Of a DNA stretch of 64,000 nt, positions 581-59,550 are shown piece by piece. A program made the position numbers and the translations under genes. The stretch's first letter is position 1; each line of letters begins with the position of its first letter. Under the pieces are notes generated by a model. That model was not told the DNA's origin. It ran no database searches and was given only the letters and a program-made list of their open reading frames with translations. Origin of the DNA: Pristiophorus japonicus (Eukaryota). The DNA lies in contig NC_091980.1 in assembly GCF_044704955.1 (NCBI RefSeq), forward strand, positions 128,464,001 to 128,528,000. Direction: 5' to 3'.

Positions 581-800
581 AATCAAAACTTTGTGGAAGC
601 AACAAACTCTTGTAAAGATTCAACCAACCACATATGCCTGTATTTATACTGCTGGATAATCCAGGGTGTGGCAGCCTGCAGGATGATTGACAGTCCTCAA
701 TAATCAATCAGAAGTTGCAGCCTCTCAGAGCACCAATCAAGTAATGGGAGGAGGGGAGATGGACTCCTAGATCTTTGAAGAATGAGCATCATTGGCTGAC
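581..800 (-). promoter_or_regulatory. Ferritin copy 1 promoter: TATA box, CCAAT boxes, degenerate IRE
   Basis: TATAAATA at 648-641; CCAAT/ATTGG near 733 and 791; IRE remnant GTTGCTTCCACAAAGTTTTGA within 610-581; block conserved in all five copies. Confidence 0.7.
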
Positions 801-964
801 AACTCAATGAGGATCTCAATTGTCCTAACTTTCCTCAAACACAGTTCAAATATCCAGAATCACAGGTTAAAATGAATCCTCTATGATTTAGGCTAATCAA
901 TTGGGAAAAACTTAAAAAGTAAGTGCTCCCTTCCAAGCATAACAAAACTAACCTAAACACTCAT

Positions 965-1175
965 CAATTTATAGTTTAGTTCCCTGTATCCACGCTACAC
1001 TCCAGACACTCTGGCGCCCACCGGTCATTGGAGGCCTCAAGCATACCGGCAGACACTGCGTGCTCCCTCTGCAGAGACACCCGGACACGGACATAGTTGC
1101 GGAAGAGAAGCAGGCAGCCGGAGAGAACACCCCATCGACTGTGCCCTGCCTGGACCAGTTAATGGCCACCTTGAA
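965..1175 (-). mobile_element. Old Tx1-like (L1 clade) LINE 3' remnant upstream of the ferritin promoter; paralogs ~23520-23790, 35897-36178, 49185-49460, 59775-60026
   Basis: Decayed KVAINWSRQ.../...FRDRWAP C-terminal ORF2 sequence matching the longer Tx1 at 60136-61234; same position in all five units. Confidence 0.65.
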
Positions 1176-1489
1176 AGGTTCATTAAATCCTCTGTTGTTT
1201 GCGAGTCAGTATATTTTTAATAGTTCTGGATTGTTCAGTGGGTTGGTCATTTTCAGGTATCCGCGGGTTTGATGCAACATCCAAAAAGATCGGTGACTGT
1301 GCAAAGCAAACAAAAGTGGGTCAGATGAATGCAAATTGCTTGTGATCAATGTGTCAAACACAAATACTCAGATACTCCATCACTTACAAGTTTAGCTCAA
1401 ATGTGGAGAGGACAATGCGATGTTCAGTTCTTGTTTTTTATCATGACATTTTGGAAACAATGAAACAGACTGCAGTCCAAAAATAAAGA

Positions 1490-1937
1490 CAAGCATTTAC
1501 ATAACGCCTTTCACAACCTCAGGAAATCCCTGAGAATTTTACAGCCAATAAGGTACTTTTTAAAGTGCAGTCACTTTTGTAATATAGGAAATGTGGCAGC
1601 CAATTTGCACATGGCAAAACTCCAGAAACAACAAGGTGAACATGACCACATTATTTGTTTTCAGTGACATTTGTTGAGGAATAAAAATTGGCCAGGTCAC
1701 AGGGGATACCTCCCCTGTTCTTCTTCAAAGTAGTGCTCTGAGATCTTTTATGTCCAACTCAGAGGGCAGTCAGCACCACGGTTGACCATCGCATCCAAAA
1801 GATGACAACTGCGACAGTGCAGCACCCCCTCATAACTGCACTGTAGTGTCAGCCGAGATTCTGTATTCACGTCTATGTCGTGGGGACTTGAACCCACTAC
1901 CTTCTGACTCAGAGGCGAGAGTGCTACCCACTGAGTT
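1490..1937 (-). mobile_element. tRNA-derived SINE (DeuSINE/SacSINE1-like); paralogs ~38358-38802, 49795-50206, 61455-61905
   Basis: Minus-strand head with A-box (CTCAGTGGGTAG) and B-box (GGTTCAAGTCC), ~450 bp body; family name from recall. Confidence 0.65.
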
Positions 1938-56070: not shown

Positions 56071-57254
56071 AAAGACATTAACATGGATAGACGAAAGATT
56101 GCGATATAATTGCACCCAGTGCAATTCTCAGCAAAGTTGCTCAAATAACTTGCAAACACTGGAATATTGCAGCTCCAGAATCAACAACATTTGAATCCAT
56201 TCATGAATGAGAAGGGGACAAAGAGAGCCAAGGGAATTTGGAAAGGATGATTGCTGTTTGGTATGAATTGCACAACAGGACTAAATGCAAATATGGAGGA
56301 GCTGCTAGTATTGAGTTATAAGTTGATGGAACAGTTATCTATTTTAATGTCAGTGTTTTTCTTCATACATTTACTCCTTCCAGAGAATCATAATTTGATA
56401 TATCCAATGATCCAAGAGACAAAACCTACCCTGGCAGCTGCATAATTTAAATTTTGTTAAATAAAAACATCTAAAAATAAAAGCAATTATCAGTACCGGT
56501 GTTCAAGAAACCCATATCATTAATGTTTAGGAAAGGAAATCTGTCGACTTACACGGGACTCCATACCCATAGCCATGTGGTTTGATGCTTAACTGCCCAA
56601 GCAAGCCACTCAGTTGTACCAGGTGACAAACGCTCAAGGGCAATTGGAGATAGAAATAAATGCTGGCCTTAAGATCAGACATTGCTGATCTGTATGATGT
56701 CACTTGCCCTTTGCCCACATAGTTCAAGAGGAAGTTTATAGCAGCAGTGTGTTTAGTTTACTAAGCTATCCACAGTTCTCACTCTGAATGCAAAAAAGGT
56801 AAGTTAGATAAACACAGGAATAAGAAAGGAATAGAAAGATATGCTAATAGGTCCAAAACAAACACCAGTTTTCTGTGCAATTCTGAAAACACAGGCAGAT
56901 GTAAAGTTTTTGATAGTGAGAGCCAAAGACAATTTGGGAAATAGTAAGCTGTCAATCACAGGCCGACTCATGGCCAATTAATGTATGAAATTTCAAACTA
57001 AATCCTTATGCAATGCTTTTATATGAGCAAAGTCACATTAATCAAAAAATAAGTAACTGCTCAAACATACAAAAAAAAAGACAAAACCCAGTCCGATGTT
57101 GAACAGTTTATTTACAGTTATGCTACATTTCACATCAGGAGCCCAGATCTCAGAGCTCTTTGTACAAAGTCACAAGCCATCATTCCCAACAGCACAGGGG
57201 TCCCAATTATATAAATTGGGAGTACTAAACACAATAAGCTTGATCCCAATCAGT

Positions 57255-59325
57255 TTAGTCACACTCCCCCAGGGTGTGCTTGTCAAACAGGTACTCTCCC
57301 AGGCCATTCTCAGGGGCTCCCAGTCTCTTCAGGTTGGTGATGTGATCTCCAAGCTTCTTGATCATCTTCACTTGTTCATCCAAGTAGTGGGTCTCCAGGA
57401 AGTCACACAACTGAAAGAGGGAAACTAGTTATGTCCAGCAGCAGATATCAAGGAATGTCAGCTTCCCCTTCAGAGTTTGGATTTTAATCCTTTGAACTGG
57501 AGGATAGTCAAGTGGTGCAATTGAGATTGATGGAATTACATTAGTTTAAACTCACTGTACAATAAGTTCTCAGATCCTGGGACACATTTTCTAGTTACTG
57601 TCCACAGTAGGCCAAATTTCTACCCCCCCCCCCACCCCCACAACACCCAACAAAAAAACCACCAACCAAAAGCTATTGTGCACAGAGAACTTTTAATTAG
57701 GCTCAAGAACAAGTTTCCTCAACCTAAGCCCACATCATTTAAAAAAAACTTACACAAGGGTCGGTGCTCTCAGTGGAGAGTTTGTGCAGATCCAGCAGAC
57801 TCTGGTTCACATTCTTCTCCATCTGCAGAGCTCTCTGCATCGCAACCAGACCATTGCTCCACTCATCCTGCTCTGGTTTCTGGAAAGAAATAACATTTTA
57901 ACAGTTCACTTATACAGGATGAAACAAACATGAGGATGTATGGAACAAAATTAGGGCTACAATCAAAAAAGTCTACATCACCATGAAACCAATGTGATGG
58001 CCTAGGCCATCAGAACTACATGGAGGGGGAATTTAAAAAGGGAATATTTAAGGGGAAGCAAGGCAAGTGCATGGGGAGAAAGGACTAGAACAATATGCTG
58101 ACAGGGAGAGATGAAGCGAGATGGGAGGAGGCCCGCTGGAGTCTCAACACCGGCAAAGACCAGCTTAGCCAAATGGCTTATTTATCCTGCATATTGTTTG
58201 GTTCCAATCAGTCCAAGGGGAGCCAGACAGAAGGCCACACATTTATGAAATCCAACCTTGATGTCCGCCAAGATGATCCGTCCTCCACGCCGATTCTGGA
58301 ATTTCATCAGTTTCTCAGCATGCTCACGTTCATGTGACTGCTCCTTGAAGAACTCAGCAAAGTGACGCAGGGCAACATCATCCCGGTCAAAGTAGAAGGA
58401 CTGTGGAGAGATCAAAAGCATAGTTGGATATTGCATGGCGGACCATTATCCTGGGCCTTATAATGGAAACTACCTACTTAGCTAACCTTGTACAGACAGT
58501 GGATAATTTCACAACTAAATCTGGAAACTTTGTGATTTGCAAAAGAACCAGTGGAATTACAATTTTTTTTTTAAAATTTAAATGCATAAAGGGCATGAAA
58601 GGGTGGTGGAAGCAGATTAAATGCCAACATTCAAAAGAAAATTGGATAAATACTAGACAGGGTTATGGGAACACGCAAGGAGTGGACAAGTTGTATTGCT
58701 CCACCCAACAGTTAGCGAGGCACAATGGACTGAATGGCCTCCTGTGCTGCATCATTTCATGATCACCAATTCAGCTTTGATTGAACATGCTCAAAACTGG
58801 AACCTTCATCTTGGCACCCTATATTCATTGCAGCTCTGCAAATTAGTGAAGGAACTACTAGATTTATACCCTTCTGGTCACCAGAATCACAATCATTGTT
58901 TATTAACCCAGCTATATTTTCTACAGGCTAGTTAAAGGGAACTACTAGAACTGTAAGCAGACCCCTTAAAGTAGGAGACGTGGTCATAGTCCACAGTTCA
59001 CATAGTACAAAGGAGAAAAACTGGTCCAGTTTTACTGGCCAATTCATCCCAAGGAACCAAATCTACCACAAGCAGTGTAAATTTGGAACCTTCCACACTA
59101 GACAAGGCATTTCAGAGGAGAACCAGATAGCAAGGAATGGAAGTTATCAGAATACAGCATAGAATTTAGTCAATTCACACAACATAGCCGCCATTGTAAA
59201 GTGGTCATATATACAACATTCACCATAGAGAGATAAACATAGGAGGAATAGAGCTCCGTGTTGATCTGCTTGTTGACAGCATTCTCACAGTCCTGGTGGT
59301 AGTTCTGCCGCACTTGAGAAGCCAT
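57255..59325 (-). CDS. fth1: Ferritin heavy/middle subunit-like, copy 5, open 175-aa frame with in-frame loss of one Glu (QSHEREH)
   Basis: Exons 59325-59224 (102), 58400-58257 (144), 57879-57754 (126, ends DPC), 57410-57255 (156, ends GECD*); GT-AG introns; AATAAA at 57112-57107. Confidence 0.88.
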
Positions 59326-59348
59326 CTTATTTTTTTTAAATATTGAAG

Positions 59349-59550
59349 TCTAAACTTTGATGAAGTACCAAACTAAGATTTAATCAACCTCAAACCCTTG
59401 TATTTATACTGCTGGATAATCCAGGGCGCGGCAGCCTAGATAAATGTCCAATCAGAAGTTGCAGCCTCTCAGAGCACCAATCAAGTAAAGGGAGGAGGGA
59501 AATGGATTCTCAGAGCCAGTCAGATCTTTGACGAATGAGCATCATTGGTT
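59349..59550 (-). promoter_or_regulatory. Ferritin copy 5 promoter and degenerate IRE
   Basis: TATAAATA at 59408-59401; CCAAT boxes; IRE remnant GTACTTCATCAAAGTTTAGA within 59374-59349. Confidence 0.65.

Follow-up and report, generated by a model that had tools for sequence, protein, structure and literature searches.

The ferritin iron-responsive element (IRE; Rfam RF00037) lies near the 5′ end of the mRNA, and its canonical rule is given in PMC2896125 as a CAGWGH loop, a bulged C and at most one mismatch, with 16 further loops obtained by SELEX. Ferritins outside this control have been described. The yolk ferritin of the snails Biomphalaria and Lymnaea has a 5′ untranslated region (UTR) without an IRE; it is a secreted protein that bears a signal peptide and an insertion of 42 aa (PMC10799875). 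As outlined in PMC7760355, FTMT is intronless, mitochondrial and outside IRE regulation, and FTHL17 is germ-line biased, has six genes in mouse and lacks ferroxidase activity. In the Greenland shark, 59 FTH1b copies are reported in tandem clusters (PMC13214024; 10.1101/2024.09.09.611499), with ovary-specific expression of the largest ferritin cluster (10.1101/2024.09.09.611499) and transcription of some FTH1b copies in fin and blood (PMC13214024). The PNAS (Proceedings of the National Academy of Sciences) paper, PMC13214024, takes the expansion as flexible iron regulation and ties it to ferroptosis and longevity. Here we analysed a 64-kb stretch of the sawshark Pristiophorus japonicus (contig NC_091980.1; hereafter the window) that holds five ferritin copies, each with a 26-nt element ahead of its start codon. 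Judged from sequence, the element is probably a vestigial ferritin IRE opening a shortened leader, in an amplified FTH1b family of cytosolic ferritins whose output would be controlled at transcription.

All five copies lie on the minus strand at a spacing of 10.5-22.6 kb, with retroelement debris between them; a tblastn search of the window with one family protein gave 17 exon matches and no sixth copy. The same order recurs in every copy: CCAAT boxes, a CACCC box at -20, a TATA box and then the element. The elements and TATA boxes are as follows.

583-608, minus strand: copy 1, 5′ leader element, IRE-like but degenerate (13/18 core bases, upper stem 3/5)
23181-23206, minus strand: copy 2, element (bulge C changed to T; the only copy with a perfect alternative hairpin)
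35534-35559, minus strand: copy 3, element (a local duplication stretches the distance from the TATA box)
48843-48868, minus strand: copy 4, element (IRE 5′ half matched 10/10; loop CAAACT)
59349-59374, minus strand: copy 5, element (the most decayed, 12/18 core)
641-648, minus strand: copy 1, TATA box (CCAAT boxes and a CACCC box upstream)
23233-23240, minus strand: copy 2, TATA-like box with C as its first base
35614-35621, minus strand: copy 3, TATA box
48895-48902, minus strand: copy 4, TATA box
59401-59408, minus strand: copy 5, TATA box

A preliminary description of this DNA had placed an element in each copy; all five are present, that of copy 1 in register at 583-608 and not 581-610, and the spacings of 33, 27 and 55 nt given there agree with ours when counted from the end of TATAAAT. 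Between first bases, the distance from TATA box to element is +39, +35, +63, +35 and +35 in copies 1-5. The element starts 44-49 nt and ends 18-23 nt before the ATG, and copies 2, 4 and 5 have initiator (Inr)-like sites at +28 and +35. From the TATA and Inr spacing we infer that the element stands at the very start of a leader of ∼45-60 nt. The copies are 86% identical to one another in the element; the corresponding values are 71-79% for its local flanks, 74-80% for introns, 91.5% for the distal promoter and about 88-92% for synonymous sites.

The element no longer qualifies as an IRE and failed every IRE test that was run. In the IRE register the loop departs from CAGWGH, reading CAAAGT in four copies and CAAACT in copy 4, so that the loop change first described as CAAA(G/C)U is indeed common to all five. 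To our knowledge, CAAAGU is also not among the 16 alternative SELEX loops. Three of the five upper-stem pairs remain in copies 1, 3, 4 and 5, and four in copy 2, which has lost the bulge C. In the lower stem, only 4-6 of 9 pairs are formally possible, compared with 8/9 in a control IRE (L001); unrelated sequence occupies the place of the 3′ lower strand, the loss of which had been correctly noted, and the lower stem is missing from the minimum-energy folds. The ensemble probability of the IRE-register stem does not exceed 0.005, whereas the control gives 0.93-1.0.

Profile searches gave the same answer. The Rfam IRE_I model (RF00037) matched neither the 64-kb window nor the 91 nt round copy 2; in the positive control, two of 20 loci passed the gathering score, at 53.3 and 36.6 bits. 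Our controls were 80 animal ferritin loci, from metagenome contigs at 57-72% identity and with no shark FTH1b among them. A covariance model, R1, was built from 22 IREs, with the other 58 loci held out. R1 found a plus-strand 5′ match at E<0.05 in 33/58 held-out loci (up to 46 bits), an incomplete sensitivity that leaves 25/58 without one; with filters off, it returned none of the five elements at E<=10, and 13 weak matches elsewhere in the window, the best at 12 bits. The claim that the IRE is broken was thus borne out: the Rfam scan was without a match, the other IRE tests failed, and the element is most likely a decayed IRE.

An upstream exon supplying a canonical IRE was also considered. 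The rule scan gave four matches in the window, two on the plus strand and two on the minus strand inside a 252-nt retroelement direct repeat, and R1 scored none of them. By rule scan and R1 together, the window therefore offers no canonical IRE elsewhere that could be spliced in. The two 252-nt repeats (40014-40265 and 44463-44714) are 96% identical and flank a decayed retroelement with reverse transcriptase and RNase H matches; each holds a CAGAGT-loop hairpin (at 40085 and 44534, minus strand) that passes the simple canonical IRE rule.

What is left of the element resembles the RF00037 ferritin IRE in lying near the mRNA 5′ end, in an identity of up to 10/10 over the 5′ half, and in retaining the bulge C and the C1-G5 loop pair, each in 4/5 copies; it differs in loop bases 3 and 4, in an upper stem of 3-4/5 pairs and in the replaced 3′ lower strand. 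Matches to the L001 core number 13, 13, 13, 13 and 12 of 18 bases in copies 1-5 (shuffle p 0.007-0.023). The column consensus of the copies reaches 14/18 (shuffle p=0.0008), a score attained by a fraction of 0.0003 of random 53-mers drawn from the window. A gapped local-alignment test of IRE likeness is weaker (p 0.008-0.074 per copy), and in all these p values the five copies are not independent of one another. Control IREs begin within 60 nt of the contig 5′ end in 26/33 cases. In the 33 control mRNAs the distance from IRE to coding match is 95-297 nt, compared with 44-49 nt here, which suggests that the leader has been shortened too. Taken from sequence, the element is probably IRE-derived.

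The altered bases can pair differently, as TTTGTTG/CAACAAA. The preliminary description rendered this hairpin accurately (we count 7/7 pairs in copy 2, 6/7 in each remaining copy and an AGTTTG/CAAACT pairing of 6/6 in copy 4), but as a conserved replacement for the IRE it did not hold. The consensus structure has an energy of −2.5 kcal/mol, to which covariation contributes unfavourably, one inner pair is broken in 4/5 copies, and the pairing probability exceeds 0.7 only in copy 2 (0.71-0.85 for 6/7 pairs) and is at most 0.32 in the others. A stable fold with covariation across copies was not found, in a comparison of five related sequences that has low power. There is no case for a new structured element. 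That the element has been re-purposed, as this hairpin for another factor or as a non-canonical IRE, is accordingly very improbable: the outer four pairs are invariant in 5/5 copies, one pair survives in copy 5 although both of its bases have changed (U-A to G-U), and C1-G5 is retained in 4/5, whereas the hairpin is weak, lacks favourable covariation, breaks at the inner pair and hardly forms outside copy 2. In addition, the 5′ invariant bases fall on the Inr-like site, an overlap that accounts for their conservation, and the best back-translations of basking and zebra shark leader peptides (described below) miss part of the 3′ arm.

The age of the IRE loss was approached through database ferritins, some of which have spurious N-terminal extensions that are translated leader. 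Nine such read-through peptides came from Cetorhinus, Heptranchias, Heterodontus, Stegostoma and Pristis, and a tenth from another sawshark paralog. Under any back-translation, the nine peptides of other genera reach at most 13/18 IRE core bases (null 10-13); among the controls, four mammalian peptides reach 17-18/18, and the other sawshark paralog reaches 14. Three peptides start at the TATA box and are colinear with the window leader through the ATG, with alignment scores of 63, 73 and 65 against shuffle maxima of 47, 49 and 57, although this null also scrambles the TATA part and so overstates the significance for the element itself. The count of leader length leaves out six peptides that stop short of the TATA box or score no better than shuffles (P0135, P0290 and P0337, and the unaligned P0124, P0126 and P0226); a search with the read-through part of P0017 returned only P0017 itself. 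A short leader lacking the vertebrate IRE core is thus also present in predicted proteins of basking, horn and sevengill shark, and the three TATA-to-ATG peptides place such a leader in both main shark lineages, in one FTH1b copy or more. The read-through leaders of other sharks indicate that the loss is probably old, and there is a good chance that it predates the sawshark lineage.

The same peptides bear on the possibility that the likeness to an IRE is partly coincidence, the IRE being already gone from the ancestral leader and both the hairpin and the IRE match being products of a CAACA that the sawshark line gained by inverted copying of a nearby TGTTG. CAACA is the exact reverse complement of the TGTTG a few bases upstream, the region is T/G-rich, with gapped p values of just 0.008-0.074 per copy, and the basking shark peptide fits both sides with a gap of ∼4-5 nt at CAACA. 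The horn shark peptide, however, has the same TATA-to-ATG length without a gap and can encode AACAG there. Moreover, the bulge GC and loop position 5 match as well, as does part of the 3′ stem, and distant animal ferritins have IREs at the corresponding position. We regard this origin as improbable.

The genes behind these leaders were placed in a tree of 41 proteins, in which the three translatable copies fall inside an 18-row elasmobranch clade (support 99/100), apart from fth1a and tetrapod FTH1 (FTH1 clade 96/92). Database clusters for the family have up to 180 members from many sharks. By tree and database neighbours, the window genes belong to the same family as the shark tandem expansion, and on this sequence evidence are elasmobranch FTH1b, a label that comes from PMC13214024, whose own sequences are absent from the tree. 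The coding features are listed below.

462-563, minus strand: copy 1, ferritin exon 1, 34 codons (remainder of the gene past the window edge)
21279-23161, minus strand: copy 2, FTH1b gene, intact, 176 aa (exons 23161-23060, 22484-22338, 21935-21810, 21434-21279)
21153: copy 2, AATAAA
33362-35514, minus strand: copy 3, FTH1b pseudogene (exons 1 and 3 each with a 2-nt deletion; exons 2 and 3 interrupted by in-frame stops)
46138-48824, minus strand: copy 4, FTH1b gene, intact, 176 aa (exons 48824-48723, 47314-47168, 46791-46666, 46293-46138)
45990: copy 4, AATAAA
57255-59325, minus strand: copy 5, FTH1b gene, open frame of 175 aa (exons 59325-59224, 58400-58257, 57879-57754, 57410-57255)

Copies 2 and 4 have four exons, GT-AG introns and 7/7 ferroxidase residues. 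Copy 5 has 6/7, a one-codon deletion in exon 2 having removed one of two adjacent ferroxidase glutamates. The copy 4 protein is identical over 176/176 residues to the Pristiophorus japonicus entry P0252 (PF00210 match, E 6.9e-41), and copies 2 and 5 match other entries of the species at 173/176 and 172/175. No signal peptide or N-terminal leader was found, the coding frame beginning at the ferritin core (176 aa), and copies 2 and 4 are predicted to encode intact cytosolic ferritin. The amplified family of five described at first therefore stands as to copy number, with the reservations that copy 3 is a pseudogene, that copy 5 lacks the glutamate, that the window takes in no more than exon 1 of copy 1, and that FTH1b amplification is not new, having already been published. 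At most two of the four complete copies are fully intact. The ratio of non-synonymous to synonymous differences (pN/pS) among copies 2, 4 and 5 is 0.21-0.46, below 0.5 in all three pairs; the intact copies are under purifying selection.

These data also bear on whether the IRE decayed passively, through relaxed selection in a tissue-restricted or redundant FTH1b array and not as a high-dose adaptation, an explanation that shares IRP (iron regulatory protein) independence with the one we prefer and differs only on cause. One of the four complete copies being a pseudogene and another lacking a catalytic residue, spacers full of retroelements, and an element no more conserved than its flanks (18/26 invariant columns against 57/107, Fisher p=0.19, the excess not being significant) all fit such decay. 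Set against it are the pN/pS values, a distal promoter that is 91.5% identical when introns are at 74-80%, and contigs from relatives that cover the four exons and join across introns. On balance we consider passive decay rather unlikely.

Several further observations concern the array and its family. Upstream blocks of several kb are common to the copies (931-3200, 35933-40035, 49216-52927 and 59799-63263), which implies that the duplicated unit reaches well past the promoter; upstream of copy 3 (36427-38201), nested direct repeats cluster with A-rich low-complexity runs. The gap in copies 2-5 between synonymous sites (about 88-92% identical) and introns (74-80%) may reflect gene conversion limited to exons, or intron misalignment. 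The sequence TGTAAATA, which we take to be a Pumilio-type motif, overlaps AATAAA in copies 3, 4 and 5 (near 33247, 45990 and 57112) and not in copy 2, and the 3′ UTRs of copies 2, 3 and 5 have a 12-nt palindrome in common. Two database entries from contigs of 308 and 567 bases, P0192 and P0342, carry the names Salmonella enterica and Escherichia coli but are ferritins of animal type; P0192 groups with shark FTH1b, so that contamination is the probable source. Entries P0063, P0087 and P0092, from two sharks, are a distinct ferritin on a separate branch (100/100); their N-terminal leader, long and basic, looks like a mitochondrial targeting sequence.

Returning to the vestigial IRE, the established mechanism of the IRPs makes it very probable that IRP1/2 would not bind these leaders and that, for want of that binding, translation would not be repressed at low iron; the amount made would instead depend on the conserved CCAAT-CACCC-TATA promoter and on how many copies there are. 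The genes would thus work like an IRE-less specialised ferritin, and would be neither a functional IRE-bearing member nor a secreted yolk ferritin. They resemble the snail yolk ferritin of PMC10799875 in the IRE-less, reproductive character that we propose for the array, but, as far as that protein is described there, differ in being 176-aa and cytosolic in type, with neither signal peptide nor 42-aa insertion. From FTMT and FTHL17, as PMC7760355 presents them, they differ in their four exons, TATA promoter and retained IRE remnant, and, in copies 2 and 4, in having all ferroxidase residues. Of the specialised role suggested previously, the high-dose part gains indirect support from the ovary expression in Greenland shark, and the secretory part is contradicted by the absence of an N-terminal leader. 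By analogy, the array could be a source of bulk ovarian ferritin, which would most simply be a cytosolic protein that stores iron or buffers oxidants in the oocyte, a weaker proposal that we put at almost evenly balanced; it may also turn over by birth and death of copies. Contigs of two runs, from relatives or paralogs, cover all four exons of copy 2 and are joined across introns; the runs contain 0.06 of the words, none of the runs found is recorded as RNA, most contigs are less than 99% alike and that they derive from RNA is a conjecture. Such contigs fix neither a transcription start nor an expression level.

A leader without an IRE favours constitutive supply over the flexible iron regulation proposed in PMC13214024. 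IREs have no occurrence in the main texts of the two Greenland shark papers or in the supplement files of PMC13214024 (of the preprint 10.1101/2024.09.09.611499, this covers the main text), and a literature search of incomplete coverage found no report of IRE loss in shark ferritin. The tie between IRE decay and the amplified shark ferritin family may be new to print.

Several points weigh against our interpretation. The transcription start is placed by TATA and Inr spacing, and the C1-G5 loop pair is kept in 4/5 copies. The peptide sample is small, consists only of predicted proteins, is biased to open upstream frames and is codon-ambiguous, and 4/10 elasmobranch peptides permit a canonical-loop hairpin with 4/5 pairs under some back-translation. 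An IRE-bearing FTH1b copy may exist elsewhere, as five of probably more than 100 sawshark copies were examined as DNA. The run contigs fit spliced expression of the FTH1b family, not of the window copies. Finally, the shark ovary is enclosed in lymphomyeloid epigonal tissue (PMC5568229); together with transcription in fin and blood, this means that ‘ovary’ need not mean oocyte.

The coding sequence differs from human FTH1 at the interface with NCOA4, which is described in PMC11076521 and PMC4592949. In human numbering, position 19 of the family is D or N, position 23 is K and position 82 is I or L, corresponding to the changes A19D/N, R23K and F82I/L at codons 16, 20 and 79 (counted from 23161, 48824 and 59325). 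K at 23 occurs in 191/200 family-type proteins counted. Shark fth1a has A19 and R23 as in human and differs at N22S and F82L, and R23K has no occurrence in the structure paper PMC11076521, so far as its text was available. A bolder proposal is that the FTH1b arrays, across sharks, correspond in vertebrates to the IRE-less yolk ferritin and have escaped iron control at both ends. There would be no IRE to govern synthesis, and the altered NCOA4-binding surface (A19D, R23K, F82I/L) would slow ferritinophagy. The product would be a bulk maternal buffer of iron and oxidants for large, yolk-rich oocytes, and reproduction, not longevity, would account for the expansion. We think this unlikely.

If the copies are without a working IRE, as we consider probable, they would have no translational response to iron, and the reading of the FTH1b expansion in terms of ferroptosis and longevity changes. 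In humans, mutation of the L-ferritin IRE leads to hyperferritinaemia with cataract (PMC11719527). The sharks would then present a natural, family-wide loss of the switch whose mutation in human L-ferritin causes disease.

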